64,000 nucleotides of DNA from Gammaproteobacteria bacterium (GCA_965116495.1 OZ220696.1:3904001-3968000); one strand, 5' to 3'. Positions 30,001 through 55,501 are shown, counted from the stretch's first letter. Made by a program: numbers and translations. The notes: generated from the letters alone by a model not told the origin.

Positions 30001-31644
30001 TCAAACATTTTGGGCATTTTGGGCGAGGAGATAATCTCCGTATTGTTCCCGCAGAGTCAGTTTACTGACTTTTCCCGTGGCCGTGTGAGGTAATTCCTCA
30101 ACGAATATCACTGCATCGGGTTTCCACCAGCGCGCAACTTTATCGTCAAACCAGGCCAGCAGGTCTTCTCTGGACACGGTTTGATCGAGCTTTTTAACGG
30201 CTATCAGCAAGGGCCGCTCGGTCCACTTCTCATGTGCGGCGCTGATCACGGCGGCTTCGGCAATGGCGGGATGGGTCATGGCGCAGTTCTCAAGCTCTAT
30301 GGAACTGATCCACTCCCCGCCGGACTTGATCAGGTCCTTGGACCTGTCGGTGACCTGGATGGTACCGTCAGGGTCTATGGTTGCAACGTCCCCGGTCGTG
30401 AACCAGCCGTTTGCGTCAACACCGGATTCCGCTTCCGTTGCCCCGAAATAACTCTCGCATACAGTCAGGCCTTTCACCTTCAGGTGTCCGGCCGCGACGC
30501 CGTCCCAGGGCAGGGCGTTATCCCTATCATCGGTGATCTTTACCTCCAGGCCGAAGATGGGCTTGCCCTGTTTCAGCGGGTACTGCCTGCGTTGTTCCTC
30601 ATCAAGTAATTCAAAGTCCGGACCGGGCACATTCAATGTGCCGGCTGAGCAGAGTTCGGTCATCCCCCAGCCCTGGGCGAGTTCCACTCCATAATCGTCC
30701 CTGAAACGTTCGAACAAGGACAGCGGGGTGGCCGCGCCACCGACAACTGCCTTGCGCAAGGTATCCAAGTTGCCACCTGACCGGTCCAGGTGATCCAGCA
30801 GCATCTGCCAGATTGTCGGCACACTGACGCCGTAAGTGACTTTTTCCTGCGTGATAAGCCGGCCTACCACCTGCGGATTGCCCATGTAGCGGCCCGGGAA
30901 CACGATGCCGGCGCCGACCAGCGGCGCACGGAAAGGCAGGCCCCAGGCGTTGACATGAAACATCGGCACGAGCGGCATAATGACGTCGTTCGCGCCGGGG
31001 CCGCCGGCATCGAGTACCGCGGTGGACAGGGTGTGAAGCAGCAGCGACCTGTGGGAATACAGCACTCCTTTGGGGTTGCCGGTGGTGCCGGAGGTATAGC
31101 ACATGGCGCAGGCCGAGTTTTCACCCGGTTCCGGCCAGGCGCAGGTGTCATCCTGGCCGGCCAGCAGGTGTTCATAGACATGTACATTCCGGAAAGAGGC
31201 GCCCGCATCATCGTCTGTGTCCAGGACGACTATGCCGTTGACATGTTTGATCTGTGGTTTCAGCCGTTCCAGGGTTGGGATAAACTCCGGCTCGGTAAAT
31301 ATCCATTTGTCCTCCGCGTGGTTGATGATGTAAGCGATCTGGTCGTCGAACAGGCGCGGGTTGATGGTGTGCAGTACGTAACCTCCGCAGATGACCCCGT
31401 AATAGAGTTCAAGATGCTGCTGGTGATTCCATGCGAGTGTCGCAATGCGCTCACCCGGCCGGCAGCCAAGCGCCTGCAAGGCGTTAAACAGCTTGCGGGC
31501 GCGCCGGAATACACCGGAATATGATGTTCTCCGGACATCCTGTTCGGATACTGCGGATACGACTTCACGCTCGCCGTGGTACATTTCCGCATGGCGCATC
31601 ACCGTGGTGATGGTGAGCGGCATGTCCATCATTAATCCTTTCAT
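30001..31644 (-). CDS. Medium-chain acyl-CoA ligase (DmdB/AlkK-like)
   Basis: [55 protein letters not shown]. Confidence 0.9.
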
Positions 31645-31698
31645 ATCCGTTGTTCCGGGTGGGTGATTGAACCGTGAAACAGTGCGCGTCCCGGGAAC

Positions 31699-32580
31699 TT
31701 AAAGAGACCCGACAAACTCCAGGTATTGTTGAGCCAGGTCGTTCAAGAGTGTATCCACCTGTTCCGGCGATTTGGCATAATGCAGCAGTACAAGCTCATC
31801 CACCCCGAGTTCATGATACTGCCTGATCATCTCGCGGTCATATTCATGGTCGAAAGGGCAGACATAAACGGAAATCTCTTCCCTGGGGCGTCCTGCCTCT
31901 GCCAGCGCCGCTTCCAGGTTCTCAAGTTGTGGGGCCAGTTGCTCCGGGTCGGCGCCGATGGCAAACCAGCCCTGGCCTTGCTCCGCCACCCGCCTGAAGT
32001 TGGGCCGGCTGTTCCCGGCGAGAATGATAGGCGGATGAGGACGTTGCACCGGCTTCGGGTAGAATCGGCAAGGGGGCAAATCATAAAAATCATCGTGGTA
32101 CTCGGAAACGCGGTCACACCACAGGCGTTTTATCACTTCTATATAAGAGCGGGTGCGCGCCCCGCGTTGTTCAAACGGCGCGCCCACAACCTTGAATTCC
32201 TCGGCCATCCAGCCAAGGCCGACCCCGAATAACAGGCGCCCGTTGGAAAGCCAGTCAACGTTTCCGGCTTCTTTTGCGGTGTAAACAGGATTGCGTTGCG
32301 GCAGGACGCAAATTGCGCTGCCCAGGCGTATCCTGCCGGTGACCGCGGCGAGATAGGCCAGTGACGTGAATATATCCAATTCGACGTTGTCTTCCACGTT
32401 CTCCAACGGCATCTGGCCGTCTTCAGACACCGGGTAGTTTGCCTCGTAGTTATCCGTTATGACGACATGTTCGCCAATCCAGAGGGAATCAAAGCCCAGG
32501 GCTTCGGCGGTTATGCCGAACGTGCGAATTAATTCCGGGGTGGAGTAGAGATTGAGAGGAACCAGTACACCGAGTTTCAT
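31699..32580 (-). CDS. LLM-class (F420/FMN) oxidoreductase, Rv2161c-like, paralog 1
   Basis: GFDSLWIGEHVV, VLPQRNP, LSNGRL..GVGLGW..EEF, PKPVQ.PHPPI. Confidence 0.88.
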   Translation of the reverse strand: MKLGVLVPLNLYSTPELIRTFGITAEALGFDSLWIGEHVVITDNYEANYPVSEDGQMPLENVEDNVELDIFTSLAYLAAVTGRIRLGSAICVLPQRNPVYTAKEAGNVDWLSNGRLLFGVGLGWMAEEFKVVGAPFEQRGARTRSYIEVIKRLWCDRVSEYHDDFYDLPPCRFYPKPVQRPHPPIILAGNSRPNFRRVAEQGQGWFAIGADPEQLAPQLENLEAALAEAGRPREEISVYVCPFDHEYDREMIRQYHELGVDELVLLHYAKSPEQVDTLLNDLAQQYLEFVGSL

Positions 32581-32769
32581 ACTATGCTTCCTGATTAAAT
32601 AACAAGAGATTAGGCCATTCTTGTCCGGCAACCCGGCAACAATGGTTTATAACTTTATGATATATTGGGTTTTGGCCGCATCAAGGTTTTTATTTTAGGC
32701 CGACGCACTATTATTCGCAAGCATTTTTCGAGTATCATGCAACATCATGGGCGGATAAATACCGATATA

Positions 32770-33405
32770 ATGAACGCAGAACAACCGGAAAAACCGGACA
32801 AGCCACAATCGAACAATAAAGTCACCGGGACCAAGGGGCAGAAGCGCCGCCAGCAGATCATTGACGCGGCGAAGCAGGCCCTGATAGAGGGTGGCGCGAA
32901 CAGCCTGGTCCTGCGCGATGTCGCGGACCAGATTGGTATCACCCACGGCAATCTTCAATATTACTTCCCCACGAAAAACGATCTGCTGATAGCGATATTC
33001 GACCAGGCGGTAGAGAAATACACGGAGAGCATGAAGGTGGCAGTCTCCGAAACGTCCACCAGCAAGGGCAGGCTGGATGCCATCATCGATGCCGGTATCG
33101 CCGAGTTGAAAGCGCCCGAAACCGCGTTATGGCGCATGATGATGTCCCTAGCGGACCACAACACGGACATGGCCTCGATTTTGAAGAAGGAAAACGACCT
33201 GTATGAACAGGTCGTGGCGGAGGAATTGGAGTTAATTTCTCCAGGGCTGTCTATTCAACGCAGGCGCCATATCGCCCGGATCATCCACGCCATACTCGAC
33301 GGACTCGGCATCCAGTTCTCCTATGAAGATGCGGAAGGCCCGGAGATGCGGGCGCTGGCCAGCGAGATTAAGATAGCGTTATTCGCCATGCTGCAGGCGA
33401 GTTAG
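32770..33405 (+). CDS. TetR-family regulator
   Basis: RRQQIIDAA...LRDVADQIGITHGNLQYYFPTK HTH. Confidence 0.9.
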   Translation: MNAEQPEKPDKPQSNNKVTGTKGQKRRQQIIDAAKQALIEGGANSLVLRDVADQIGITHGNLQYYFPTKNDLLIAIFDQAVEKYTESMKVAVSETSTSKGRLDAIIDAGIAELKAPETALWRMMMSLADHNTDMASILKKENDLYEQVVAEELELISPGLSIQRRRHIARIIHAILDGLGIQFSYEDAEGPEMRALASEIKIALFAMLQAS

Positions 33406-34193
33406 CGTTTGCTAATCATAAACGAACGTAATTCTTCGGTAGTGTATGTCTTCTCTACTTTGCCGTAATTCAGCTCAGCATTGGCGCGGCCGTATTCGAA
33501 AGAAATCAACTCTTTGACGGGTAACATGGAATCGGAATGCGCGCCGAACTGCAGGTTCCCCGAACCGGTATAGACTTCTGCCTTCCCGTCCGAACCAATG
33601 ATCGGGTTGACCTGGTAGTTCAGTGTAACCATCTGTGCCAGAATTGGTAATTGCCCTCCTTCTGCGTCCGGTATAACGCGCAGACAGATAAGGGGTACCG
33701 CATCTCCGTCACTTGCCAGTTCATTCCTTGCCGGTTTCATCATGGCCCGGATGGCCCGGTCGTCAGGTTTGACATCCATCACTGCCTCTACATGACCGTC
33801 GCTGTGCTTGATAACGTCGATCCGGTGGGCGCGTTTTTTGCCAAATCCGTACAGTTCACGATCCACAATCTGTGAGGTTTCACTGGTACAGTACACCCCC
33901 GCCAGGTAGCCGTGGACTTTGCCTTGCCATTCACACAGGATACCGGTAAACACCTCGTTGTAGGCCCCTACAGTGCTCCAATGATTTCTCTCGATCACCA
34001 TGAATGCAGTGGCAGGTTCATGGAGTGAGAGAACGGGAGGCAGGATGTCAAGTATGGCGTCATCCTCAGTCTTCCAGGTGACGGTAACGGCTTCAAAATC
34101 GCGGAAATAGTAGGGACCTCTATGCACAGAAGGGCTGTGTAGAGGTGCGAATGCGCCCCATTTGTCAAAAGTGAGTCGTCCGGGTTTTGGCAT
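33402..34193 (-). CDS. Acetoacetate decarboxylase-like protein, paralog 1
   Basis: GPYYFRD, GAYNE, RELYGFGKK (Schiff-base Lys), LRVIPD. Confidence 0.8.
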   Translation of the reverse strand: MPKPGRLTFDKWGAFAPLHSPSVHRGPYYFRDFEAVTVTWKTEDDAILDILPPVLSLHEPATAFMVIERNHWSTVGAYNEVFTGILCEWQGKVHGYLAGVYCTSETSQIVDRELYGFGKKRAHRIDVIKHSDGHVEAVMDVKPDDRAIRAMMKPARNELASDGDAVPLICLRVIPDAEGGQLPILAQMVTLNYQVNPIIGSDGKAEVYTGSGNLQFGAHSDSMLPVKELISFEYGRANAELNYGKVEKTYTTEELRSFMISKR

Positions 34194-34218
34194 TGTATTA
34201 TTCTCGCAGGGTTGTCAG

Positions 34219-36465
34219 CTAAATTTGTGTTATCCGAACCGGAATAGCGTTCAGTACTGCTGTCCCGGATAAAGTATCCAGGTTCATGTCGTCTACCAGT
34301 ACATTCATGTTTGACCCCGGTTTCTGCCGGGCGATGTTCAAGCGCATACCTTCCCTGTTGTGTCCCCATCCATGAGGCATACTCACGACTCCCGGCATGA
34401 TATCTTCGGTAATCTCAACAGGTATTTCGATCTCCCCGGTATTTGTGCTCAATCTGGCCGGCCTGCCGTCATCCAGGGACAGCCGCTGCGCATCTTCCGG
34501 ATGAACCTGCAGGGTGCAACGGGATTGACCTTTCGCCAGAATATCAACGTTGTGACCCCATGAGTTGATACTGCGCAAATGCCGGCGTCCGATTAGTAAT
34601 AGTTCTTCCCCGGAAGGGTGTTGCAGCGGCGCCTGAAGCAATGTGCGGGCTTCTTCCATGAAGGCTGCGGGAGCCATCTCAATTTTTCCGTTGGGTGTGC
34701 GCAATACTTCGGGTAAGCGCGGTTGTAAAGCGCCAAAATCAACCCCGTCAGGTTTGGAAATTATTTTTTCCAGTGTTATACCGTCCGGGTTCGCGCCAAA
34801 TCCATCGCCATAGGGGCCGACTCTGAACCCGGCGTCCAATACCCGTTCCACACCGCGCTTGCCTGAGAGCCGGCTCATTGCAGAGGGAATATCAATACCG
34901 TGAGCTATGGAATACTCATCAGCCGCCGCTTCGGCGATAATTTCACTGATCATCCGGTCCTCCATTTCCTGTAAACCTTGTTCGTCCTGAACCCCAAGCC
35001 CGGCTGCTATAGCGCTGATTTGCAGTAATACATCCCAATCCGATACCCACTCCGCGGGTGACGTGAACAGGGCAGGGGAGAACCGGACAACATTCCGCAC
35101 TGCATACATGGCCGAAAAACTCCCGTAGTAGCATGTTTCGAAAGTAGGGGTTCCCGGCAGGATTACATCGGCATGGCGCGAGGTTTCGTTGATATAAATA
35201 TCCAGCGACAGGAAAAAATCCAGTCGGGACAGCGCCTTGTCCAGGCGTTCCGGGTTCGGGGCACTGGATACCGGATTTCCGCACATGGTAACCAGGGCGC
35301 GGATTTGTCCATCTCCAGGTGTTTCAATTTCTTCAGCCAGACAGGCAACCGGCAATTCACCACAGGTCGGCGGCATGTTGCGAACACGGCTACGGAACGT
35401 GGATTTGGGTAGCGGTTCACCTGTACCCGGTTTACCCTTTGTGTTGGCAGCAAACGATGGCGCCTTGGCAAACATCATACCGCCGGGTTTATCAAGATTG
35501 CCGGTCACGATGTTAATGACTTCAATTAACCAACTGGTAACCGTACCGTACTTCTGCGTGGTGGAGCCGACCCGGCCGTAAACGCCTGCTCTTTCCCTTG
35601 TCGCCAGTTCATGGGCGATTGTTTCAATGGATAAGGCATCTATCCCGCAGTTGGCCGACATTTGTTCCAGGGAAACCAGTTTTGCCAACGCTTCTATCGT
35701 ATCCAGGCCTGATATGAACGGGGCGATAGCGGCTGTTTTCGACAACCGGTCACGAAATATGACATGCAGCACGGCCAACAGGAAATACTGGTCCTGTCCC
35801 GGGCGAATGAACAAATGCCGGTCGGCAATTTTTGCCGTCTCAGTACGGCGAGGGTCCACAACAACCAACTTGCCGTTGCGCTTTTTCAAATCCCGCGCAC
35901 GTTTCCTGAAATTGGTTGCCAGCCATAAACTCCCGTTGGAAATTTCCGGGTTTGCACCGATGATGAGCAGGTAGTCAGTGCGGTCTATATCGGGTACGGG
36001 GTTGGTGGACTCATCACCATACATTTCGGTGCAAGTGAGTATCTTCGGGAGTGCATCGACAGAGTTGGCCGTATACAGATGAGGCGTAGCAAGGGCTTCG
36101 TACAGAAACAGAAAGCCGGTATTAAAAGCTGCGCTGCGTAAAGTGGCATTACCCACGTACAGGGCAACAGACTCCTTACCATATCGTTGTGTTACGTCTG
36201 ACAGTTTTTCATCGATAACCGCAAAGGCTTCATCCCAGCCGGCAGGCACAAGCTTGCCGTTTTTTCGCACCATTGGTGTCCTTAGCCGGTCCGGGTCATC
36301 TCCCAGTTCCATTAGTGCCACACCTTTAGGACAGACATGTCCCAGGGTCATCAGATCATTGTTATTGCCACGAATGCTGACTACCTTATTTTCTTCGAGC
36401 GTAAGTTCCAGCCCACAGATGGCTTCACAATTCGGACAGATGTAGTAGCTCTCCCGGCGGGACAT
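34219..36465 (-). CDS. Stand-alone molybdopterin oxidoreductase with N-terminal 4Fe-4S
   Basis: CPNCEAICG...CPKG, DPDRLRTP, GANPEISNGS, VDPRRTETA, LIGRRH, PHGWG. Confidence 0.88.
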   Translation of the reverse strand: MSRRESYYICPNCEAICGLELTLEENKVVSIRGNNNDLMTLGHVCPKGVALMELGDDPDRLRTPMVRKNGKLVPAGWDEAFAVIDEKLSDVTQRYGKESVALYVGNATLRSAAFNTGFLFLYEALATPHLYTANSVDALPKILTCTEMYGDESTNPVPDIDRTDYLLIIGANPEISNGSLWLATNFRKRARDLKKRNGKLVVVDPRRTETAKIADRHLFIRPGQDQYFLLAVLHVIFRDRLSKTAAIAPFISGLDTIEALAKLVSLEQMSANCGIDALSIETIAHELATRERAGVYGRVGSTTQKYGTVTSWLIEVINIVTGNLDKPGGMMFAKAPSFAANTKGKPGTGEPLPKSTFRSRVRNMPPTCGELPVACLAEEIETPGDGQIRALVTMCGNPVSSAPNPERLDKALSRLDFFLSLDIYINETSRHADVILPGTPTFETCYYGSFSAMYAVRNVVRFSPALFTSPAEWVSDWDVLLQISAIAAGLGVQDEQGLQEMEDRMISEIIAEAAADEYSIAHGIDIPSAMSRLSGKRGVERVLDAGFRVGPYGDGFGANPDGITLEKIISKPDGVDFGALQPRLPEVLRTPNGKIEMAPAAFMEEARTLLQAPLQHPSGEELLLIGRRHLRSINSWGHNVDILAKGQSRCTLQVHPEDAQRLSLDDGRPARLSTNTGEIEIPVEITEDIMPGVVSMPHGWGHNREGMRLNIARQKPGSNMNVLVDDMNLDTLSGTAVLNAIPVRITQI

Positions 36466-36481
36466 GGACAGAAATCATCAG

Positions 36482-37363
36482 TTAAATTGATGAAACGAAA
36501 TCCAGGTATTGTTCGGCTAACCTGTTTAACAGACTTTCGACCTCGGCTGCAGATGTTGCAAAGTGCAAAAGGACGAGTTCGTCGACACCCAGTTCCCTGT
36601 ATTCCTCAATCATTTCGTGGTCATAGTCATGTCCATAGGGACAGGCATAAACCTTAATCTCTTCTCTTGGCCGGTTCGCCTCAACAAGCGCGGCTTCCAG
36701 GTCCGCGATTTGCGGAGCCAGTTGTTCGGGATTGGCGCCGATGGCAAACCAGCCCTGGCACTGGTCTGCAACGCGCCTGAAACTGGGTTTACTGTTACCG
36801 GCAAAAATAATGGGCGGGTGGGGCGTTTGAACGGGCTTCGGATAGAAGCTGCAGGGGCGTAAGTCATAAAATTCATCATGGTATTCAGAGACAGGGTCGC
36901 ACCACAGGCGTTTTATCACCTCGATATACGAACGGGATCGCGCCCCGCGCTGTTCATAGGTGGCGCCGACAGCTTCAAACTCCTCTCTCTGCCACCCCAG
37001 CCCGACGCCGAGTTCCAGGCGCCCGTTTGAAAGCCAATCCACGTTTGCCGCTTCTTTTGCCGTGTAAACCGGATTGCGTTGCGGCAGCACGATGACAGCG
37101 GTGCCCAGCCGTATTCTGTCAGTGATCGAGGCAAGGTAAGCCAGGGAAGTGAATGCATCGAGTTCAGCATTATCGGCAGCTTCTTCGTACTCCATCCTGC
37201 CATCTTCGTATACGGGAAAGTTCGGATCGTAATCATCCACCATCACAACATGCTCACCGACCCACAGCGAGTTAAAACCCAGTTTCTCCGCAGTCGTTCC
37301 AAGCGCGCGCAGAAACTCCGGGGTTGCGGTAAGGTTAAGCGGGACCAGTACGCCTAATTTCAT
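36482..37363 (-). CDS. LLM-class (F420/FMN) oxidoreductase, paralog 2
   Basis: Same length (293 aa) and closely similar to 31699-32580. Confidence 0.88.
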   Translation of the reverse strand: MKLGVLVPLNLTATPEFLRALGTTAEKLGFNSLWVGEHVVMVDDYDPNFPVYEDGRMEYEEAADNAELDAFTSLAYLASITDRIRLGTAVIVLPQRNPVYTAKEAANVDWLSNGRLELGVGLGWQREEFEAVGATYEQRGARSRSYIEVIKRLWCDPVSEYHDEFYDLRPCSFYPKPVQTPHPPIIFAGNSKPSFRRVADQCQGWFAIGANPEQLAPQIADLEAALVEANRPREEIKVYACPYGHDYDHEMIEEYRELGVDELVLLHFATSAAEVESLLNRLAEQYLDFVSSI

Positions 37364-37493
37364 GGTTTATTCCCCCGATTTCCGCCAGGTGGCGTTCGAA
37401 GCCTGAAACAGCGGAAAAATACCCGGTACATGTTAACTCGAACCACCGTGTGGTCCGGGCCCATGTTCGTGTTACCGGCGGTTGCGCTCTTTC

Positions 37494-38249
37494 TCAGTAG
37501 GTCTTGAGAATTTTCCCGTAGGGCAGGTCGGCCGTCATCCTGACATATTTGGCGTCGACAATCTGCACTACCGGCAGATTCACATCGGATATTCTGTCAA
37601 CTTCCAGTGATGCCGAACCGTTGTATAACTCGTCCTTGCCATCAGGGCCCTTGTGGGGGACGCCGGTAAACAACACCGAGTTCAACTGCGCCACGGCGGG
37701 CGTATCGCTGCCCTCGACATCGGGTATGACTTTAAGGACCGCGAGCGGCAGTGCCGCCAGTTCCGAAGCGGGCAGGTTTCTATCCGGGAAGAAAAAGGTT
37801 TTGGCGACTATGTGGCCCGGTTTGACCTCTACAACACCCTCGATCTCACCGGTCCCGTGCTTGATCAACTCGATACGGTGGGCGAGTTTTTTTCCGAAAC
37901 CCCAGACTTCCCGGCCTATGATGAGGGCATTTTCCGTCGTCACGTATACGGCGTTGGTGTAACCGTATACCTGGCCTTCATGCATACACAGGATCCCGGT
38001 GTACACCTCGCCGTAAGGGCCGCCACTGGTACTGATATTATTGACTTCCAGCACCATGAACGCGGTTGCAGGTTCAATCAGTTCAAGCTCCGGCGGCATG
38101 ATATCAAGTGCCGCATCTTCATCGGTCAGGTAGGTAATCACCAGCGCTTCGGTATCGCGGTAATACCAGGGGCCTTTCTTATAAGAAGCATTGTGTGCGG
38201 GCATTGTTGAGCCCCATTGATCGGGTGTCAGTCTTCCCATTTTTGCCAT
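37494..38249 (-). CDS. Acetoacetate decarboxylase-like protein, paralog 2
   Basis: GPWYYRD, GPYGE, GREVWGFGKK, LKVIPD. Confidence 0.85.
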   Translation of the reverse strand: MAKMGRLTPDQWGSTMPAHNASYKKGPWYYRDTEALVITYLTDEDAALDIMPPELELIEPATAFMVLEVNNISTSGGPYGEVYTGILCMHEGQVYGYTNAVYVTTENALIIGREVWGFGKKLAHRIELIKHGTGEIEGVVEVKPGHIVAKTFFFPDRNLPASELAALPLAVLKVIPDVEGSDTPAVAQLNSVLFTGVPHKGPDGKDELYNGSASLEVDRISDVNLPVVQIVDAKYVRMTADLPYGKILKTY

Positions 38250-38539: not shown

Positions 38540-39697
38540 ATGCAGCATTCCAGTAAAAATTCTGATATTGCCTTAATAATTGCGGTCGCGGCCGGGACAT
38601 ATATCAGTATCACCTCGTCTAATTTCTCCCCGCTTTTAATCGGCATATTAGCGGATTCAGACATAGTAGCTGAAATTACCGGAGCCTATATTTTAGCACT
38701 TGAAATTTGTGCCATCCCTGTTGCGACGCTCGTAGTATTGCCTTTCATACAGCATGTTAATCGGCAAAGGTTAGCAATTGCAGGTGTTGTGTTCGCTACG
38801 ATTGCTCAATTGATCAGTCCGTTTTTCCTGGAGAATTATGAGCTCTTTATAACACGTTTTTGTGTTGGGCTTGGGCTGGGTTGTGTTTATGCCGCGGTCA
38901 ATTCAGTAGGCGCAACTTCCGAATATCCAGATAAGGTATTTGGCTATTCAACAGCTATTACATTTCTCCTGTACGCAATTACGCAACCACTGATGTCCAT
39001 GGTCATCGGGAGTTTTGGGTTTGGCGGTGCATGTATCTTTCTTACGGTAGCAGGATTGATTTCTCTGCTGTTTATTCGCAACTTTCCCAGTGAACCCAGC
39101 ATAGTCAAACAGCAAAAAATAGAGGTGCATTGGCGCTATTACATTGCCTTACTGATTACAATTATATTAATTAATCTTGCCGCCGGTACAACCTGGGCAT
39201 TTGTGGAAAGAGTAGGAGTTAGCAGGTTTGGATTGGATATTGAAATAATTGGTTTGATTCTCGGGATAGGAACAGCAGCCGGGGTAGTGGGGGCTTATTC
39301 AGCTTCATGGGCTTATACCCACCTGGGTCGCATAAATTCAATATTGTTTGGCTTGGTCTTGTTTGGAGCGACAAGTTACGGGATCACAAATTCAACTACA
39401 ATACCAGTCTATACCGGCAGTATAATTCTTTACTGGTTTATCTATCTGTTTCTTTATCCACTACTGTTCAGCGCTGCTGCTGAGCTGGATCGTTCCGGAC
39501 GTCTGGCTACCATTACCGGCGGTTTATTATGGCTTGCTGTTGGCATCGGACCTGCGGTTGGCGGACTGATTGCTTCTCGATATAGCTACGGCATGCTTGG
39601 ATGGTTCAGTTTTTTCTGTTGCGTTCTAGCAGTGCCTTTTTTCTATAGGGTAGGCCGGTACTTGGAGACCCGTTATGAAAGCTCTTCAAAAGCTTGA
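38540..39697 (+). CDS. MFS transporter
   Basis: About 12 hydrophobic helices; RFCVGLG and AELDRSGR motifs; AT-rich coding sequence. Confidence 0.8.
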   Translation: MQHSSKNSDIALIIAVAAGTYISITSSNFSPLLIGILADSDIVAEITGAYILALEICAIPVATLVVLPFIQHVNRQRLAIAGVVFATIAQLISPFFLENYELFITRFCVGLGLGCVYAAVNSVGATSEYPDKVFGYSTAITFLLYAITQPLMSMVIGSFGFGGACIFLTVAGLISLLFIRNFPSEPSIVKQQKIEVHWRYYIALLITIILINLAAGTTWAFVERVGVSRFGLDIEIIGLILGIGTAAGVVGAYSASWAYTHLGRINSILFGLVLFGATSYGITNSTTIPVYTGSIILYWFIYLFLYPLLFSAAAELDRSGRLATITGGLLWLAVGIGPAVGGLIASRYSYGMLGWFSFFCCVLAVPFFYRVGRYLETRYESSSKA

Positions 39698-40589: not shown

Positions 40590-40750
40590 CTTTCTTATCT
40601 CCCCTGTTGATTGAGGTAAGTATGGAATATAGGCCATTGGCCGGGTCTTATCAAGTCGCAACATTGTTGATGCCAGGTCCGTTGCTTATAATGTTAATAA
40701 AACTGAACAAACTGTTCGCAGTAACATAAGACTTTTGGAAAGGTATTATT

Positions 40751-42904: not shown

Positions 42905-43249
42905 TTAACGCCATTCCACCGGTTTATCCGATACCAGCATGGTGATGTCTTCAAAGTCATCGCTCATTTCGAAATCGATAGTAGTCCCTTCTTCAACATA
43001 CAGGATGTCGCCTACGCCTATCGAAAAGTTCTCACCTCCATGGACATTGACTTTGGCGGAACCCTTGAGTACGAAGGCAAATTCGTCAAAGGGGTAGGTA
43101 AAGGTGTGTTTTCCGGCTTCCTTGAAAGCAACGACTGCCCGTGTCTTGTCGGCTGACCGGTAGAAAACATGTTCCCCGCCGCCGAATTCCGGTGTCAGTT
43201 CCCAATCAACGTCTTTCATGTTAAAGCGTAAGGCTTTTGGTGTGTTCAT
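42905..43249 (-). CDS. Cupin (EutQ/DUF861-like)
   Basis: YPFDEFAFVLKG...GDILYVEEG. Confidence 0.75.
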   Translation of the reverse strand: MNTPKALRFNMKDVDWELTPEFGGGEHVFYRSADKTRAVVAFKEAGKHTFTYPFDEFAFVLKGSAKVNVHGGENFSIGVGDILYVEEGTTIDFEMSDDFEDITMLVSDKPVEWR

Positions 43250-47708: not shown

Positions 47709-48020
47709 TAAATTCTCTCCGGGTGATATGTAAGTTAAAGCCAAAATATTGATATTGCAGTCACTCAACAAAATATTCAGCGAGTATAGGCCAGAGTATA
47801 GTTTATTTCAACAATTGTTTAAAATTGATAAGTCATTAATATACAATGTATTAAACAATTTTAAATTAGAATTATCAAAAAACAGGATTTAACGATGGGA
47901 TTAATAATAGGCCAGCGGCTTATAGTTTTTACGCGTGAATGTTAAAAGGGAACGCGTAACGCCACATTTGTCGGTAATTTACTTGTCCTGAAGCCATAAA
48001 AAACCACCCGGGATAGCAGG

Positions 48021-50114
48021 ATGAAAACCATTCTCGTAACAATCATCGCATTCATGGTTACATTTCAAAAACCGGCTTTTGCTCTCGATACTGATCTGCC
48101 CGGTTATACCTATGAGCAGGCGCAACTGGGCAGGGCAGTCTATAAACAATCCTGTGAGTTGTGTCACGGGGCAAATTTAAATGATGGTTCGTCACCACCG
48201 ATTACCGGTGACCTTTTCTATAGTATATGGGGTGGACGTTCTGCAGGAGAGTTACTGCAGTATATTGAAACAGAGATGCCGACCGGTTCACCGGGAACAC
48301 TTGACAGTAAACAATACCGGCAAGTTCTGGCTTATATGTTCCAGGTGAGCGGTTTTCCTGCGAGGGATGGTGAACTGTCACAAAATCCGGATGAGTATGA
48401 TACTGCGCGTTTACCGATACCGTCCGGAGGCCGGATTTCTGCAGATATTGTCGCCATACCACCGCCACCCGATCCACGGGCGAACCCGCTTGATAAAATC
48501 ACAAGGGTAAGCAGTCAAACATTGGCGCAAGCGCCCGCCGGGGACTGGTTAATGTGGCGTCGAACATACGACGCAAAGGGCTTCAGTCCATTAAAAAATA
48601 TCAGCGCGAAAAATGTGACGGACCTGAAGGTGGCATGGGCATGGACAATGCCCGATGGCAGGAACATTTCAACACCATTAGTCCATGATGGGGTTATGTT
48701 CATGTATGGTGCGGGCAGCCTCGTGTATGCGTTTGATGCTGTTACGGGGGATATTCTTTGGCGTTATGAGAGGGAGAAGAAGTGGCACTCTCCACGTTCT
48801 TTTGGTCCGCGCGCCATATCAATTTATAACGACAAAATCATTCTGACCACCGATGACGGAAATATCGTCGCACTCAACGTAAAGACCGGCAAAGTCGAAT
48901 GGGATAAATCCGTATTAAGTGCTACCACCCTTTGGTTTTCCGCGGGTACCCTGGTTGCCGATGAAAAAATTCTCATCGGCACGGCTACTGCCAGCGCACC
49001 CGGCATGAACTTTATCGCAGCGTTTGATGTACATACCGGTGATGAATTATGGCGCTTCCATACCATCCCACAGGATGGACAGCAGGGTAGTGATAGCTGG
49101 AATGGGGTTGCAACAGGGCAACGCCAGGGTGCGGGCGTCTGGGTACCAGGTAGCTATGATCCGGAATCAAATCTGGTTTTCTTTGGTACCGGTAATACTT
49201 ACAGGCCACAACTTTTGAGAATATTGGCCGAAGGCGCCGCAAGCAATGATGGGCTTTACACCAATTCCACACTCGCGCTTGATATAGATAGCGGAAAACT
49301 GAAATGGCATTTCCAACATCTACCGAATGATCAATGGAATTATGATTGGGCCTTTGAACGAACAGTTGTGGTCTTACCTGTCAACGGAGTTCACAAAAAA
49401 GTGGTCATTACAGGCGGTAAGCAAGCCATTTTTGAAGCCTTGCAGGTTAGTAATGGTGAGTATCATTTCTCGATAGATACAGGTTTGCAAACTGTGATCA
49501 AGGCAATAGAGCCACTGACGGGCACTAAAAGAATAGCTGCGAATGTATTACCTGAAAAAAATCAAACGCGTTTTGTCTGCCCCGATTCCCTGGGGGCCAG
49601 GAACTGGCAGCCAACATCATTCAACAGTGAAACAAATACACTCTTCACGCCATATAGAGAGTCGTGCATGAAAATACGATCGCCATTATTACCCGGTGAT
49701 ACTCCGCACGGACTTTTTGGCCAGAAACCTTATCCGGCACCGGGTAGCGACGGTAACTTTGCCGGCCTGCGGGCTATAAACCTGGAAAGCCAGGAAATAT
49801 TGTGGTCAACCCGTAAACGGGCAGAGCTGAGTACCGGCGTATTGGCGACCGCGGGAGGGTTGATATTCTCGGGTTCGCGGGACCGGGTATTTTCTGCCTA
49901 TGATCAATCTGGTGGTACAGAATTATGGCAAGTTCGTCTCAATGGAGTTCCCAGCGGTGGCCCCATCAGTTTTATGGTAGAAGGTAAACAGTACATCGCG
50001 GTTACTACCGGTGACTCTGAAGGTTTCGGTGAATACAATTTGGGTGAAGGAGATCAAAATCCAAAAAAGAGCAGTGCAACTATTTGGGTATTTGAGTTAC
50101 GTGATTCCAGTTAG
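48021..50114 (+). CDS. PQQ-type beta-propeller dehydrogenase with N-terminal cytochrome c
   Basis: Signal peptide, CELCH heme motif, W-motif propeller repeats, GARNWQP, KQYIAV. Confidence 0.85.
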   Translation: MKTILVTIIAFMVTFQKPAFALDTDLPGYTYEQAQLGRAVYKQSCELCHGANLNDGSSPPITGDLFYSIWGGRSAGELLQYIETEMPTGSPGTLDSKQYRQVLAYMFQVSGFPARDGELSQNPDEYDTARLPIPSGGRISADIVAIPPPPDPRANPLDKITRVSSQTLAQAPAGDWLMWRRTYDAKGFSPLKNISAKNVTDLKVAWAWTMPDGRNISTPLVHDGVMFMYGAGSLVYAFDAVTGDILWRYEREKKWHSPRSFGPRAISIYNDKIILTTDDGNIVALNVKTGKVEWDKSVLSATTLWFSAGTLVADEKILIGTATASAPGMNFIAAFDVHTGDELWRFHTIPQDGQQGSDSWNGVATGQRQGAGVWVPGSYDPESNLVFFGTGNTYRPQLLRILAEGAASNDGLYTNSTLALDIDSGKLKWHFQHLPNDQWNYDWAFERTVVVLPVNGVHKKVVITGGKQAIFEALQVSNGEYHFSIDTGLQTVIKAIEPLTGTKRIAANVLPEKNQTRFVCPDSLGARNWQPTSFNSETNTLFTPYRESCMKIRSPLLPGDTPHGLFGQKPYPAPGSDGNFAGLRAINLESQEILWSTRKRAELSTGVLATAGGLIFSGSRDRVFSAYDQSGGTELWQVRLNGVPSGGPISFMVEGKQYIAVTTGDSEGFGEYNLGEGDQNPKKSSATIWVFELRDSS

Positions 50115-50314
50115 GAAATGATCTGTACAACTGTGTTAGTAAATATTAGGCCAACACATAGTATTTTACGAAAAAATTTACTAATTATATAACTATATGA
50201 TAAACATATAATAAATAAAAATATTAATAAGATTATATAACTCATAATATTAATATTTTGACTAATAATAGGCCATTATATTATAATAAGAACTTGTTGA
50301 ACAGGAGAAAGCCA

Positions 50315-51373
50315 ATGTCAGACACACAAAATGAACACCCACTAAGCCTGGACCACGCCGCAATCTGGGTCGAAGACATGGAAAAAACAGTCGGCTTCCT
50401 CACTGACGTGGTAGGCTGGCGGCGCCATCCCATGGAGATTATGGTGAGTGACGAGGACGAAACCACCGGCGGCATGGAGGCCGTGTTCGTCGACGCCAAC
50501 GGCATATGGCTGGAAATGATATTACCCACGTCACCCGGTCCGGGCATGGACATCCTCAAGGAAAAAGGCGACGGCGCCATCATTGAGATCAACTTCGAGC
50601 CCGGCAATTACGATGCAGTGCTGGATGACATGAAGGCCAGGGGCATCCCGATGTTCAACATGGACGGTTCTCCCCTGGGTGAAGACGGCGGAGTCATCAA
50701 GGAAGGCGTGGTCGATGAAGGCGATTTCGAGCATACCGGCCAGCGCATTGCCTATTGGTCCACCGAACTGAGTCGGGGGACGGTCGTCGAGATCTTCGAG
50801 GTGATCAAGGGTGACGAACTCAACCTGATCAGCCAGCGCGATCGGCAGTGGGAAAAGGAGAGCCTGCAACAGCAAGGGCCGCGCATGAGCCACATTTCCA
50901 TCGTCGTTGCGGACCTGGAGCGCACGGCCGGTTTCTATACCGATGTTATGGGGCTGAAACGGCACCCGATGCAACTGGGCATTGACGGCGCTTCCAACGA
51001 GGAGATCGGCGGCATGAAGGCCGCGTTCATCGATGCGGGCGATGTCTGGCTGGAACTGTTCCAGCCTGTCGGTCCCGGACCGCTCATGGACCTGCTGAAT
51101 GAAAAAGGCGACGGTTACGTAGCGGAATTGTGTACCGAAGTCGATGACCTGGCTGCGTATTACGACGAAATGAAAGCAAAAGGCGTGCAGATGGTGGGCA
51201 TCGACGGAACACCGCTGGATGACAGTGAAAAGTATTACGTGCTCGACCCCTATGGCGAGAAGATAGCCTATTTCCCCGCTGAGGTGAGCCGCGGCATGAC
51301 CATCGAAGTCATCGAGAGAGGGCCCCGGGAGACCAGCATCCTGCACCGGCGCGATGATGCGTGGAAAGACTGA
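50315..51373 (+). CDS. Tandem VOC/glyoxalase (methylmalonyl-CoA epimerase-like) protein
   Basis: Two similar halves: LDHAAIWVED..WLEM..PGPG and MSHISIVVAD..WLEL..GPGP. Confidence 0.75.
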   Translation: MSDTQNEHPLSLDHAAIWVEDMEKTVGFLTDVVGWRRHPMEIMVSDEDETTGGMEAVFVDANGIWLEMILPTSPGPGMDILKEKGDGAIIEINFEPGNYDAVLDDMKARGIPMFNMDGSPLGEDGGVIKEGVVDEGDFEHTGQRIAYWSTELSRGTVVEIFEVIKGDELNLISQRDRQWEKESLQQQGPRMSHISIVVADLERTAGFYTDVMGLKRHPMQLGIDGASNEEIGGMKAAFIDAGDVWLELFQPVGPGPLMDLLNEKGDGYVAELCTEVDDLAAYYDEMKAKGVQMVGIDGTPLDDSEKYYVLDPYGEKIAYFPAEVSRGMTIEVIERGPRETSILHRRDDAWKD

Positions 51374-51451
51374 TCGGGAATAACCCGTATTCTCTCCTGC
51401 TCAATGATTCAGGCTGGGATGCATTCGTGCTAATCTACTGATTGGTGAGAT

Positions 51452-52801
51452 ATGCAGGCTAGCAGTTTGGATGTTATCCAACAGGACATTTTCACGGCCT
51501 ACCGGAAACTGACCCCCGCGTCCGGGGCATACTATCAACGCGCCCGCCAGTCATTGGCCGGTGGCACTACCGGGAATTTACGTTTTTTCCCGCCATATCC
51601 TGTTTATGAAACCGGTGGCCGGGGCGCCAGGGTCACGGATCTGGACGGTAACGAGTACATCGACTGTTTTCTCTGCAACGGTCCTCTTCTGCTGGGCCAT
51701 AATCATCCGGATGTGATCGCCACTATAGCAAGGCACAGCAAAACGGGTCCGCTGGTCGTCAACCCCCCCATCATTGCAGAGGCCGCGGAACTGGTGCAGG
51801 AAACTGTCCCCTGCGCCGAGCGGGTGCGATTCCTGAACAGCGGCACCGAGGCCGTCATTATGGCCGTGCGCTATGCGCGGGCCTTCACCGGCAACAGCAA
51901 GCTCGTTAAATTCTACGGCCACTACCACGGCCAGGCTGACCAGTTCCTGACCGGACTTGGGCCGACCGCTGAACCGTTCGGCGCCGGTGTTCCCGGTGAG
52001 GCGGCAAGCAACACCTTATTGACCGGCTATGGCGATATCGATGCATTGGCAAAACTTATGGAAAACCACGATGACATCGCAGCCGTCATCCTGGATCCGG
52101 CAATGCACGCGGGAGGGTTGTGGGGTAGCAACGGATCATTCCTGCAAGCCGTTAGATCTCTCACGTTGGCGCGTAACATCGTACTCATATTCGATGAAGT
52201 GATTACCGGTTTTCGCCTGGCGCTGGGTGGCGGTCAGGCTTACTACGGCGTGACGCCGGATTTAACCACTCTCGGCAAGGCCCTTGCTGCGGGAGAGAAG
52301 CTGGCCGCGGTTGCAGGTAAAGAGGAAATCATGCGCGTGGTTGATCCCCTGGCGGCTTCCGGTACGCCGCGTGTTTTCCAGTCCGGCACAGGTAACGACG
52401 GTAGCGCGGGCATTGCAGGCGCCATCGGCGCAATCAGGACATACCAGCAACTGAATGAGAGGGGAGAATACAGTCACCTGTTCAATATCGGTGAAGCGCT
52501 GGCCGAAGGTATCCACCAGGCATTTTCGTCCCGGGAGATACCTTGTCATGTGAACCGGTTGGGGCCCATGCTGCAGCTTTTCCTCTCGGCAGAAGAACCC
52601 GGTTTCGAGCGCTTTTCCTTACTGGACATGAAGGTGTTATCACTATTCTTTCTGGCGCTCATTAACGAAGGGGTGATCCTGACATTGCCCACCTCGCACC
52701 ACATTTACCTGTCTTTTATGCATAGCAGCGAGGACATCGACGTCATCATTGACAGGACGAACCTGGTTCTGGATAAATATGATTTCAGATCACTGTTATA
52801 G
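51452..52801 (+). CDS. Class III PLP aminotransferase (GSA-aminomutase-like)
   Basis: DLDGNEYID, NSGTEA, YHG, FDEVITGFR, PDL..LGK. Confidence 0.88.
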   Translation: MQASSLDVIQQDIFTAYRKLTPASGAYYQRARQSLAGGTTGNLRFFPPYPVYETGGRGARVTDLDGNEYIDCFLCNGPLLLGHNHPDVIATIARHSKTGPLVVNPPIIAEAAELVQETVPCAERVRFLNSGTEAVIMAVRYARAFTGNSKLVKFYGHYHGQADQFLTGLGPTAEPFGAGVPGEAASNTLLTGYGDIDALAKLMENHDDIAAVILDPAMHAGGLWGSNGSFLQAVRSLTLARNIVLIFDEVITGFRLALGGGQAYYGVTPDLTTLGKALAAGEKLAAVAGKEEIMRVVDPLAASGTPRVFQSGTGNDGSAGIAGAIGAIRTYQQLNERGEYSHLFNIGEALAEGIHQAFSSREIPCHVNRLGPMLQLFLSAEEPGFERFSLLDMKVLSLFFLALINEGVILTLPTSHHIYLSFMHSSEDIDVIIDRTNLVLDKYDFRSLL

Positions 52802-52860
52802 AATTCATCCCTGGCTGCAGGGATTAACTCGCGTTTTCAACATACAACCGGAGTACTACC

Positions 52861-54294
52861 ATGACTGACACGAGCAAAGCGGAGCTGGACAGGCTGTTTG
52901 AACAACAAAAAGCTGCCTTCCTGGCCGACAACAATCCCTCCTATGAACAACGGATGGAATGGCTGCAGGCCATGGAGAAGATGATGGTCGACTTGCGTCA
53001 GCCCATCCGTGATGCGCTGGGCCGGGATTTTGACTCTCACCCGGAGTTGATTACCGACCTGTTTGAAACCGGCGGGGTACTGGGCCGTTGTCGCAATGCC
53101 ATGGTCCATTTGCAGGAATGGATGGCCCCGGAAGAGCGGCCTTTGCTGGATATAATTCATGGGTCATCACGTTGTGAAATCGTCAAACAACCCAAAGGCG
53201 TGATGGGTAACATAGCACCCTGGAATTTTCCCATTGAGTGTTCCCTGGTCATGGTCGTTGACATGCTGGCGGCCGGCAACCGCGTTATCGTCAAGATGTC
53301 TGAACTGGCCCCGGTAACCGCAGACCTTATCCGGGAGAGTGTCGGCAAGTATTTTCCGGAAGACGTGCTGGCCGTCGTTATCGGCGATGTTGAGTTTTCC
53401 GAGTATTTTTCCGAATTACGTTGGGACCACCTGACCTATACGGGCAACACCAACGTGGGACGGCTGGTCATGCAGGCGGCGGCAAAGAACCTGACCCCGG
53501 TGACCCTGGAACTGGGCGGCAAGAATCCGACCATTTTCCTTGAAGATGGAGTCGACGAGCAACTGATCAAGGAATACCTGAGCTTCAAGTTCTGCAAGAA
53601 CGGACAAATTTGTACATCCCCCGACTATGCCCTGGTACCTGAAGGCTTGCTGGATACCTGGCTGGAACTGGCCAGGAAGGTATGGAAGGAAGCCTATCCC
53701 ACCTATATCGGCCATCCTGATGTAACCGGCATCATCAATGAACGCCATTATGACCGCATCATCAAATCCCTCGAAGAAGCGGGCAACAGCGGCGCCCAGG
53801 TGATTAACCTGAGTGATGAAGAACCGGACCGTGCACGGCGTCAAATCCCGATGTACCTGGTGGTGAACCCTGCAGATGACCAGGAAGTCATGCGCGAAGA
53901 AACCTTTGGCCCTGTTACGCCGGTGCGGACCTACAAGACCCTGGACGAGGCTTATGCCTACATTAACAGCCGCGAGCGCCCCCTGGCTTCTTACCTGGTG
54001 ACCATGGCCCGTGAGCCGGAAACGGTCGAGCAATTCAAGCGTGGTATTGTTTCAGGCGGCGCCGGCATCAATGTCTTTGGTTTCCAGGCAGCGGAGCCGA
54101 CCGCACCCTTCGGCGGGATTGGATCCAGCGGTACCGGGTGTCATGGCGGCCCCCAGGGATTTAACAATTATTCCCATTCCAAGACCGTGTATAACTGTTC
54201 CCAGGACAATCCCCTGAAGATGTCCGTCTGCGCGCCCTATGGTGAGATCACACAGGCCTTTGCGGATGGCATTTTTGCCGTGCATGAACAATAG
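52861..54294 (+). CDS. Aldehyde dehydrogenase (coniferyl-aldehyde DH-like)
   Basis: PWNFP, LELGGK, GQICTSPDY, EETFGP, PFGGIG.SG. Confidence 0.9.
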   Translation: MTDTSKAELDRLFEQQKAAFLADNNPSYEQRMEWLQAMEKMMVDLRQPIRDALGRDFDSHPELITDLFETGGVLGRCRNAMVHLQEWMAPEERPLLDIIHGSSRCEIVKQPKGVMGNIAPWNFPIECSLVMVVDMLAAGNRVIVKMSELAPVTADLIRESVGKYFPEDVLAVVIGDVEFSEYFSELRWDHLTYTGNTNVGRLVMQAAAKNLTPVTLELGGKNPTIFLEDGVDEQLIKEYLSFKFCKNGQICTSPDYALVPEGLLDTWLELARKVWKEAYPTYIGHPDVTGIINERHYDRIIKSLEEAGNSGAQVINLSDEEPDRARRQIPMYLVVNPADDQEVMREETFGPVTPVRTYKTLDEAYAYINSRERPLASYLVTMAREPETVEQFKRGIVSGGAGINVFGFQAAEPTAPFGGIGSSGTGCHGGPQGFNNYSHSKTVYNCSQDNPLKMSVCAPYGEITQAFADGIFAVHEQ

Positions 54295-55083
54295 ATGAAC
54301 AGTTCCGTCAACCCCCTTTCCCAGGAGTCCAAGGTTGCCCTGGTCACCGGCGCCGCCGGTGGTATCGGCAGCGCAGTGGCTATTACCCTGGCGCAACAGG
54401 GGGCATCCATTATTCTTACCGATCAGGAATCCGAGTCAGACAGGCTGACCCAAACCAGGCAATCCATAGAGAAGCTTGGGCAACCGGTTACCGCGCTGTT
54501 CGCTGACCTGGCCGCCGGAGAGCAGATTGATGTACTGGTAGAGCGTGCCTACGAGGAATTCGGATCCATCGACGTGCTGGTGAACGTTGCAGCCATCCAC
54601 CGTTATCCTGATCCCTTGCTGAAAATAAGCGAAGCGGACTGGGACCTGGTCCAGAACGTAAATTTCAAGAGCTGTTTACGCCTGTGCCAGCGCATTGTAC
54701 CCAACATGGTCAAACAAGGCTCCGGCAACGTGATAACTGTTGCTTCGGACAGCGCCTTTGATGTTATTGCCGGGGAAGGGCCTTACGGTATTTCCAAGAT
54801 CAGCCTGACCAAGCTCGCCGCCTATCTTGCCAAAGAAATTGCCGGCTCGGGTGTGCGTATAAACGCCATTGCCCCCGGTTGGGTAAGAACACCCTTGATA
54901 GAACAATACTGGTCGGATCCCGAATTCATGCGGGAAGCCAAGGCCGGCATTCCTTTGCAGCGCATTGCCGAACCCGAAGAAATTGCAAACGTGGTCCTGT
55001 TCCTGGCCTCGGACCTGGCAAGCTATGTCCATGGCCATTGCATGGTGGTAGACGGCGGGCGTATTGCCGGCGTGCCCTGTTAG
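54295..55083 (+). CDS. SDR oxidoreductase
   Basis: TGAAGGIG, YGISK, PGWVRT, VDGG. Confidence 0.9.
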   Translation: MNSSVNPLSQESKVALVTGAAGGIGSAVAITLAQQGASIILTDQESESDRLTQTRQSIEKLGQPVTALFADLAAGEQIDVLVERAYEEFGSIDVLVNVAAIHRYPDPLLKISEADWDLVQNVNFKSCLRLCQRIVPNMVKQGSGNVITVASDSAFDVIAGEGPYGISKISLTKLAAYLAKEIAGSGVRINAIAPGWVRTPLIEQYWSDPEFMREAKAGIPLQRIAEPEEIANVVLFLASDLASYVHGHCMVVDGGRIAGVPC

Positions 55084-55122
55084 TCAGGGTCCATGATAGA
55101 AGTGCCTGTCTGAACATCGCTT

Positions 55123-55501
55123 ATGCAGGAATTTGTCAGCAAGGTGGCGCTGGTAACCGGAGCAGGTTCGGGTATTGGGCGCGCCACATCCTTGGGCTTT
55201 GCCAGGTGCGGCGCAAAAGTAGTGGTTGCCGATATCAACCTTTCGGCTGCGGACGATACGGTAAAGATCATCAAATCAGAAGGTGGACAGGCGACGGCGA
55301 TGCAGGTTGATGTGTCCAGTTTGCCCGCCGTCGAGGACATGGTAGCGCAGACTGTTGCCTAAAGCGCTGGAATCCGAGCCCATAGGACGTTTCGGCCAAC
55401 CGGGGGAGGTGGCCAATGCAGTCATCTGGCTCTGCTCCGAGCAGGCCTCCTTTGTCACAGGTCACGCGTTGGCCGTGGACGGTGGTTACGTAGCTCAATA
55501 A
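55123..55501 (+). pseudogene. SDR with large internal deletion
   Basis: N-part TGAGSGIG stops at 55362; C-part [11 protein letters not shown]...VDGGYVAQ* resumes immediately; NNAG and YxxxK missing. Confidence 0.85.

Follow-up and report, generated by a model that had tools for sequence, protein, structure and literature searches.

A catabolic gene cluster (the island) occupies positions 30,001 to 55,501 of a 64,000-nucleotide stretch of gammaproteobacterial DNA (GCA_965116495.1, OZ220696.1:3904001-3968000), referred to here as the window. Its core comprises about eight genes, including those for an acetoacetate decarboxylase (ADC)-like enzyme, a class III aminotransferase (AT3), an aldehyde dehydrogenase (ALDH), a TonB-dependent receptor (TBDR), a tandem VOC protein, a TetR repressor and a reductase drawn from one of two families. 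This core and a palindromic operator recur in Gamma- and Alphaproteobacteria, among marine, lake and sponge bacteria, and we are highly confident that they represent a single co-regulated system. The host genome (G000, 4.34 Mb, one contig, 99.5% complete) belongs to a sponge-associated genus; its congeners carry further G numbers and individual loci carry L numbers.

Recurring core and shared operator

An ADC profile search returned 51 genome loci, 41 of them outside the genus, which gives a lower bound on the size of the family, and a VOC profile search returned at least 80 metagenome loci. Gene content was counted over the 28 non-genus, ADC-anchored genome loci of at least 12 kb, with 13 shorter loci omitted. 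ALDH was present in 25 of the 28, AT3 in 24, TBDR in 23, VOC and TetR in 19 each, and an AraC regulator in six. An MDR alkenal reductase was found in 17, an EthD protein in 13, a luciferase-like (LLM) protein in seven, a cupin and the short-chain dehydrogenase SDR2 in six each, and a flavoprotein resembling spermidine dehydrogenase (SpdH) in five. The Rieske oxygenase and SDR1 were each found once, and the molybdenum (Mo) enzyme and the cytochrome-pyrroloquinoline quinone (PQQ) protein in none. The 27 metagenome loci of at least 10 kb, anchored independently on VOC, contained AT3 (21), ALDH (21), MDR (20), TetR (19), ADC (18) and TBDR (15). A previous sequence-only reading of this DNA had taken 19 genes as one pathway and proposed co-occurrence elsewhere as a check; the core of about eight genes bears this out, but the full set of 19 does not, since the Rieske oxygenase, the Mo enzyme, the cytochrome-PQQ protein and SDR1 are mostly add-ons of the genus.

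Judged by record title, the carriers belong to Halieaceae, SAR86, Steroidobacteraceae, Caulobacterales, Sphingomonadaceae and Hyphomicrobiales, and include the cultured Sphingosinicella xenopeptidilytica (L073) and Pseudomaricurvus alkylphenolicus (L047). The system was found in none of 400 genomes sampled from the phylum, and a plasmid search gave distant ADCs only (best rows at about 30-34% identity). Four loci whose metagenome-assembled genome labels look unreliable (L038, L048, L054 and L071) were kept out of the taxonomic range. The ADC of L048 is identical to that of L049, which is titled to a different phylum, and L038 has 64% GC under an enterobacterial name, probably through mis-binning.

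All 19 open reading frames (ORFs) of the families named earlier were found between 30001 and 55083 (Pfam, NCBIfam), the ADCs being assigned to PF06314. Starts were corrected from Shine-Dalgarno-like sequence and homolog alignment for TetR (32770), LLM1 (32580), ADC3 (40589), the SpdH-like protein (45369), TBDR (47708) and VOC (50315). The genes are:

30001..31644, minus: acyl-CoA ligase, DmdB/PRK06187-like (family search); accessory, in 3 of 28 non-genus loci at threshold
31699..32580, minus: LLM1, TIGR03619 F420-dependent LLM class (241.6 bits, cut-off 166.9)
32770..33405, plus: TetR repressor with BetI-type C-terminus (family search, homolog alignment)
33402..34193, minus: ADC1, ADC-family Schiff-base enzyme; accessory, travels with the Mo enzyme
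34219..36465, minus: molybdopterin oxidoreductase (Mo enzyme) with N-terminal 4Fe-4S motif; accessory, in 4 of 10 congener and 0 of 28 non-genus loci
36482..37363, minus: LLM2, second TIGR03619 LLM (240.6 bits, cut-off 166.9)
37494..38249, minus: ADC2, core ADC-family enzyme
38540..39697, plus: MFS transporter; accessory, travels with ADC3
39756..40589, minus: ADC3, third ADC paralog; accessory
40751..41545, plus: SDR1; genus add-on
41715..42860, minus: alpha subunit of a Rieske oxygenase, closest among solved structures to carnitine monooxygenase CntA; genus add-on
42905..43249, minus: EutQ-like cupin
43411..45369, minus: SpdH-like flavoprotein with twin-arginine (Tat) signal, predicted periplasmic amine dehydrogenase; ortholog in 5 of 28 non-genus loci
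45549..47708, minus: TBDR; core
48021..50114, plus: cytochrome c and PQQ-fold protein with non-canonical active-site motif; accessory
50315..51373, plus: tandem VOC protein; core
51452..52801, plus: AT3, GSAM-like class III aminotransferase; core
52861..54294, plus: class-3-type ALDH; core
54295..55083, plus: SDR2; swaps with an EthD protein in non-genus loci
55117..55530, plus: remnant of an SDR gene, broken so that its N- and C-terminal parts lie in different frames

LLM1 and LLM2 are 73% identical. An export signal was looked for in the sequence of the Mo enzyme and none was seen.

The operator is a palindrome, TAGGCC-N3-GGCCTA, the full form of which is apparent from distant loci. Its sites in the island are:

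32610..32617, plus: half-site TTAGGCCA, scoring weakly in the matrix (<9 bits); the following site lies 85 bp away
32693..32713: tetR operator, 57 nt ahead of tetR, 22.4 bits, the top matrix score of the genome
38336-38356 and 38459-38479: pair of operators at a distance of 123 bp, in the divergent promoter of ADC2 and MFS
40627..40647: single operator, ATAGGCCATTGGCC, in the divergent promoter of ADC3 and SDR1
47784..47925: pair of operators at a distance of 121 bp, in the divergent promoter of TBDR and the cytochrome-PQQ gene
50144..50286: pair of operators at a distance of 122 bp, ahead of the VOC-AT3-ALDH-SDR2 run

The promoter motif that the sequence-only reading had seen to be shared across units is real and far above chance. 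W-W-TAGGCCA occurs eight times in the island, where its genome-wide rate predicts 0.35, and WTAGGCCA 12 times in the window against 3.56 ± 2.0 in shuffles, with none of 100 shuffles reaching 12. A spacer of 3 gave 175 strand-counted matches and other spacers 0-5. Across 62 of 116 non-genus loci we counted 130 distinct sites, mostly near the starts of VOC, SDR, AT3 and ADC genes, with just eight lying deep within core genes. We trained a matrix on 62 sites drawn from 24 loci outside the genus; over the whole of G000, island sites made up 7 of its top 10 matches and 8 of the top 14. Sites above 14 bits were present in 37 of 41 TetR loci, including 15 of the 19 held out of training, and in none of ten loci with AraC in place of TetR. 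The operator sites overlap sigma-70-like boxes, the right site of the 50144..50286 pair falling in the spacer of an 11/12 sigma-70 match, and they are present in all ten congener loci examined, the 85-bp pair before tetR included. The TetR recognition helix, ITHGNLQYYF, is at least 90% conserved among 61 homologs, and this repressor is predicted to bind the operator. The shared operator and the co-occurrence across classes uphold the earlier view of one co-regulated catabolic unit.

A wider regulon in G000 was considered and rejected, the six best matrix matches outside the island lying inside genes or at no evident promoter. We likewise rejected the possibility that the motif arose by insertion duplication or marks an integron site, since the 121-123 bp interiors differ and distant loci have the full palindrome. 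The pairs at 47784-47925 and 50144-50286 seem to be one divergent promoter in duplicate: G005 and G009 lack the cytochrome-PQQ gene, and there TBDR abuts VOC with one operator pair only.

Reductase alternation and likely history of the locus

The reductase belongs to different families in different loci. Among 63 non-genus loci of at least 8 kb, 39 have MDR only, ten LLM only and one both. MDR is a member of a double-bond reductase family; an ortholog was searched for in G000 and none was found. LLM1 and LLM2 pass the cut-off of the F420-dependent family TIGR03619, and G000 has cofD, cofE and cofH above cut-off (3757627-3759386; 4223372-4225609), the cofH match lying in an 850-aa frame that is probably fbiC. 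cofE was found in 21 of 34 carrier genomes searched, and in all ten genomes with LLM loci compared to 8 of 20 with MDR loci. Given the TIGR03619 match, the host F420 genes and the alternation with MDR, the LLMs are more likely to act as F420H2 reductases, in place of the alkenal reductase, than as oxygenases.

EthD and SDR2 alternate as well, with EthD only in 21 non-genus loci, SDR2 only in 14 and both in none, a pattern broken in congeners G002 and G014. Assignment of EthD as a methylmuconolactone isomerase was dropped, having given weak matches only (E 0.3 or worse). Besides EthD, the cluster in G002 (L168:3039-7073) and G014 (L165:14048-18059) includes a PQQ alcohol dehydrogenase of canonical type, a distant alkenal reductase and, between VOC and AT3, an additional LLM.

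Genomes of the genus nearly always have ADC, VOC and AT3 together or not at all: of 23, 11 have all three and ten have none, the exceptions being G021 (77% complete), with ADC only, and G001, with only fragments of VOC and AT3. The position of the locus next to metZ is preserved among congeners, as is the set LLM1-TetR-ADC2-SDR1-Rieske-cupin-SpdH-TBDR-VOC-AT3-ALDH-SDR2. Mo with ADC1 (4 of 10 loci), MFS with ADC3 (5 of 10), LLM2 and the cytochrome-PQQ gene are optional, contig ends cutting some of the loci. At the metZ-flanked site, three of five ADC-negative congeners checked retain fragments of a terminal gene, the CoA ligase or SDR2, and two retain none; in a sixth congener, G001, the locus is in part internally deleted. 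No tRNA was found within the window, no integrase was noticed among the window ORFs, of which some only were family-scanned, and the GC content in 2-kb steps ranges from 0.45 to 0.58, the genome mean being 0.547. The deletion relics, the lack of a tRNA and the unremarkable GC mean that the locus reads as ancestral and repeatedly lost, and the idea of a recent island is not borne out.

Proposed route, substrate and rival explanations

We tentatively favor, with confidence just short of even, the order uptake, optional periplasmic C-N oxidation, transamination, double-bond shift, reduction, acid formation and beta-oxidation. An unsaturated or cyclic amine would be taken up by the TBDR, optionally oxidized at a C-N bond in the periplasm by the SpdH-like protein and carried inward by the MFS transporter. 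AT3 would remove the amine to leave a carbonyl, and the ADC-family enzyme could then use its Schiff-base lysine to shift a beta,gamma-enal or enone to the conjugated form, as CLA-DC does. The double bond would be saturated by the F420H2-dependent LLM here, or by the NADPH alkenal reductase elsewhere, while VOC, SDR2 or EthD may adjust the tautomer or oxidation state. ALDH would produce an acid, which the CoA ligase would activate, and a nearby block of acyl-CoA dehydrogenase (ACAD), ACAD11-like and kinase genes may complete the route. In the genus, the Rieske oxygenase, the Mo enzyme, the extra ADCs and the cytochrome-PQQ protein may broaden the range to take in, for instance, N-methylated or N-oxidized variants.

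Several observations weigh against one core system with this route. Orthology in the locus counts depends on identity cut-offs that we set ourselves. The matrix test is not wholly independent, the left half of the operator having been recognized first in this window, and 4 of the 41 TetR loci have no site above 14 bits. Neither reductase was seen in the DNA examined of the remaining 13 of the 63 loci. In a quick, unfinished tree every LLM locus from outside the genus groups within a single ADC clade, so that the LLM/MDR alternation represents few independent events, and G002 and G014 have LLMs alongside EthD and a distant alkenal reductase (at most 39% identical to the MDR family). The solved folds nearest to ADC2 are true decarboxylases. 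No operator accompanies the ACAD/kinase block in G000; the block persists in island-negative congeners and is present in only 4-6 of the 28 non-genus loci, so its link to the cluster is loose.

An amine substrate, as previously suggested, is supported by the aminotransferase adjoining ALDH, the SpdH-like flavoprotein and the CntA-type Rieske oxygenase. The SpdH-like protein has full-length homology to SpdH (E 2e-54) and a twin-arginine N-terminus, and its His78 and His590 match what we take to be the heme ligands. Five further SpdH-like genes lie in G000 near 1820200, 712400, 1531800, 2728900 and 395300, of which three adjoin class III aminotransferases and two are directly beside TBDRs. These SpdH/aminotransferase pairs support an amine substrate and make the outer architecture a recurring theme in G000, their neighborhoods suggesting a repeated amine-scavenging module. 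The descriptions "bulky" and "polyamine conjugate" found no direct support. In L061 (10647-14534) a sugar-type ABC transporter stands within the cluster in place of the TBDR, which hints at a small, fairly polar substrate. On chemistry alone, sphingoid bases, 2-substituted pyrrolidines, tetrahydropyridine sponge alkaloids and aminosteroids are candidates, as are queuine-type aminocyclitols, mycosporines and Adda. Contigs from two metatranscriptome runs of one study cover 25 and 23 of the 30 bins across the island. These runs also cover 24 and 12 of 30 bins in a control stretch, and one RNA contig bridges a divergent intergenic region; DNA carry-over may therefore contribute, and we discarded the coverage as evidence of expression.

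We compared ADC2 to solved structures of its superfamily. The ADC2 model (pLDDT 90.2) matches the fold of true acetoacetate decarboxylases (3bh2, 3bgt, 3c8w; TM-score 0.79-0.82, 0.81 to 3bh2; 24-29% identity), and K120, K121 and E81 align to K115, K116 and E76 of 3bh2, thereby keeping the Schiff-base lysine. K120 and E81 are conserved in all 45 alignment rows. Two decarboxylase residues that we take to act in the active site, Arg29 (presumably in binding the substrate carboxylate) and Glu61, are however replaced by Thr33 (Thr in 44 of 45 rows) and Met65 (Met in 40 of 45), and the loss of Arg29 makes decarboxylation by ADC2 doubtful. The island ADCs also score below the NCBIfam NF002614 cut-off (69.7, 96.8 and 59.1 against 150 bits).

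We consider it unlikely that the ADC enzyme cleaves a C-C bond instead, by a retro-aldol reaction through a Schiff base, or by hydration followed by retro-aldol, after transamination of an amino-alcohol such as a sphingoid base or aminocyclitol, with LLM or MDR and ALDH reducing and oxidizing the released aldehyde or enal. A neutral ketone would fit the loss of Arg29, and a fatty aldehyde dehydrogenase, alkenal reductase and CoA ligase together are like the back half of sphingoid catabolism. The aldolase-dehydratases MppR, for which an aldolase role is described (PMC7820114), and Sbi_00515 share the ADC-superfamily fold (TM-score about 0.72). ADC2 is nevertheless nearer to the true decarboxylases than to these enzymes (14-20% identity), no ceramidase or glycosidase was found in 71 scanned neighbor ORFs (of 119 picked), and a literature search linking sphingosine catabolism to these enzymes found nothing.

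Decarboxylation returns, as a quite unlikely account, if AT3 converts a beta-amino acid (or acts in a 2-amino-3-oxo acid route) to a beta-keto acid that the ADCs decarboxylate, with VOC as alpha-carbon epimerase or glyoxalase and Adda-type catabolism as analog. Its nearest solved folds speak for ADC2 as a decarboxylase, but the Thr and Met at the presumed Arg29 and Glu61 positions do not. The matches of AT3 include beta-transaminases (E 5e-45), but it is closer to GSAM and D-phenylglycine aminotransferase. AT3 scores below the HemL cut-offs (NF000818, 319 against 398 bits; TIGR00713, 312.5 against 527) and lacks the KAGSG gating-loop stretch in alignment. The best NCBIfam match of VOC is methylmalonyl-CoA epimerase, below cut-off, and Sphingosinicella xenopeptidilytica is among the carriers, both of which would fit. 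Against this, the tightly linked ALDH, whose nearest solved relatives are steroid, benzaldehyde and fatty aldehyde dehydrogenases, would be superfluous for a methyl ketone product, and the available text on the Adda route describes an aminotransferase and beta-oxidation and mentions no ADC or VOC (PMC11446756).

The N-terminal half of VOC has H14, E67, E91 and E159 in 41-42 of 42 homologs, a likely metal site. Two attempts to derive its function were uninformative: the model (pLDDT 92.8) matched only two-domain VOC folds (HMS, HPPD; TM-score about 0.6, 11-17% identity), and the Atlas gave glyoxalase clusters only. The homologs P0149, P0223 and P0230 have N-terminal signal-like or membrane segments and a single-domain VOC with a hydrophobic N-terminus is present in ten loci (e.g. 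L076:15082-15786), which together suggest periplasmic copies.

It is very unlikely that the system mainly serves detoxification instead of growth, by removing reactive carbonyls or electrophiles (enals, 4-hydroxyalkenals, glyoxals) along with their adducts to amines. The alkenal reductase, class 3 ALDH, VOC and 4-hydroxyacyl-CoA route would suit lipid-peroxidation aldehydes, and the operator may resemble the NemR box of E. coli, but the TBDR in 23 of 28 loci and the MFS and ABC importers favor uptake, and the rarity of the system among the 400 phylum genomes is unlike housekeeping detoxification. A mosaic of unrelated scavenging modules, or plain polyamine catabolism, is barely credible and largely refuted for the core: the host is rich in scavenging paralogs (tblastn: about 30 Rieske, at least 60 TBDR matches, six SpdH-like genes), modules are gained and lost among congeners, and SpdH-like genes pair with aminotransferases elsewhere in G000, but ADC and tandem VOC are confined to this one locus there, the same core and operator occur in two classes, and SpdH-like orthologs in distant loci are 55-78% identical as against about 40% for the G000 paralogs.

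Known systems, significance and surroundings

The closest parallel to the proposed double-bond shift is the cla system of Lactiplantibacillus plantarum (CLA-DH, CLA-DC, CLA-ER), where CLA-DC, an ADC-family double-bond isomerase, is described as working on an unsaturated ketone in series with an SDR before it and an enone reductase after it (PMC13365329). The present cluster would be analogous in pairing an ADC-family enzyme with a reductase (MDR or LLM in 50 of 63 loci) and in its frequent SDR neighbors. Unlike cla, it adds an aminotransferase, ALDH, tandem VOC, TBDR and TetR, and the oleate hydratase CLA-HY, the entry enzyme of cla, is absent from the 19 island genes and the recurrent neighbor families. 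MppR, Sbi_00515 and Swit_4259 share the ADC-superfamily fold and Schiff-base chemistry with ADC2 but differ in sequence (14-20% identity) and gene context, and phmmer of ADC2 against them gave no match at E 0.1.

For the LLMs, the F420H2-dependent luciferase-like hydride transferases Apd6, LxmJ and fPKR are reported, in the text available, to reduce C=C and C=N bonds (PMC8498797). Likeness lies in TIGR03619 and the host F420 genes; difference lies in the lack of a characterized close relative (best PDB match E 1e-22) and in the catabolic setting in Gammaproteobacteria. SpdH of Pseudomonas aeruginosa shares full-length homology and the Tat signal with the flavoprotein here but is distant in sequence, and the island form is in only five of the 28 non-genus loci. 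The cytochrome-PQQ protein has no Cys-Cys and has WNYD in place of what we take to be the usual PQQ alcohol dehydrogenase motif, WDYD; it scores below the cut-offs of TIGR03075 (325.9 against 480 bits) and TIGR04528, and pqqC was found in G000. No partner reductase gene for the Rieske oxygenase was found among the island genes.

The ACAD, ACAD11-like dehydrogenase and kinase genes lie at 3969529-3973788 of G000, just beyond the window and about 12 kb past SDR2; the ACAD11 homolog match (E 3e-131) was measured on congener G002. As far as the available text goes, ACAD11-like and kinase proteins of the LvaA/LvaC type feed 4-hydroxyacyl-CoA into beta-oxidation (PMC11342911). In likeness to lva of Pseudomonas putida, an ACAD11-like dehydrogenase and a separate kinase flank the cluster, together with an SDR and a CoA ligase. 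Unlike lva, for which that text gives no amine-handling genes, the block here is accessory, split around the island and without operator. Adda catabolism in Sphingopyxis sp. YF1 similarly proceeds from an aminotransferase to CoA ligation and beta-oxidation; no mlr genes were found among the scanned neighbors here, and the available text leaves ADC, VOC and reductase unmentioned there (PMC11446756).

In agreement with the earlier view that no described pathway matches, no description of the cluster was found in the literature searched, most subscription papers lying outside its reach. The kind of system is familiar, a TonB-fed, TetR-controlled catabolic cluster; the enzyme set and operator are apparently undescribed. 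We judge the chances evenly balanced that this is an undescribed pathway for a widespread natural amine, common to SAR86, Halieaceae, Steroidobacteraceae, Sphingomonadales and the sponge-associated gammaproteobacterial genus, and combining a new TetR operator, a new non-decarboxylating ADC-family reaction, a new tandem-VOC family and an F420H2-dependent LLM that replaced the NADPH alkenal reductase in Gammaproteobacteria. It points to an organic nitrogen compound with a dedicated consumption route in unrelated marine, lake and sponge bacteria, and reactions could be assigned to the ADC subfamily, the tandem-VOC family and the proteobacterial F420-dependent LLM. Its reduction to roughly eight core genes, together with the operator now defined and two cultured carriers, makes the system testable.

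A sponge metagenome run contains long stretches of a close relative of the host (share 0.40), in contigs of up to about 3 kb with few differences. To the right of the island, at 55688-58968, lie a truncated extracytoplasmic function sigma factor, the only ORF of either flank covered by the family scan, and Fic-like and AAA ORFs. The left flank (26838-28520) holds a PIN-type toxin-antitoxin-like pair and a PD-(D/E)XK-like ORF. Further left, three ORFs at 53-3117 (hydantoinase-like, PabB-like and amino-acid-kinase-like) are presumably C1 genes linked to tetrahydromethanopterin and methanofuran. At 19222-24091, upstream of the island, an operon kept in congeners encodes a 915-aa molybdopterin enzyme, a 4Fe-4S subunit, a membrane anchor and RidA, and we take it to be PadBCD-like.

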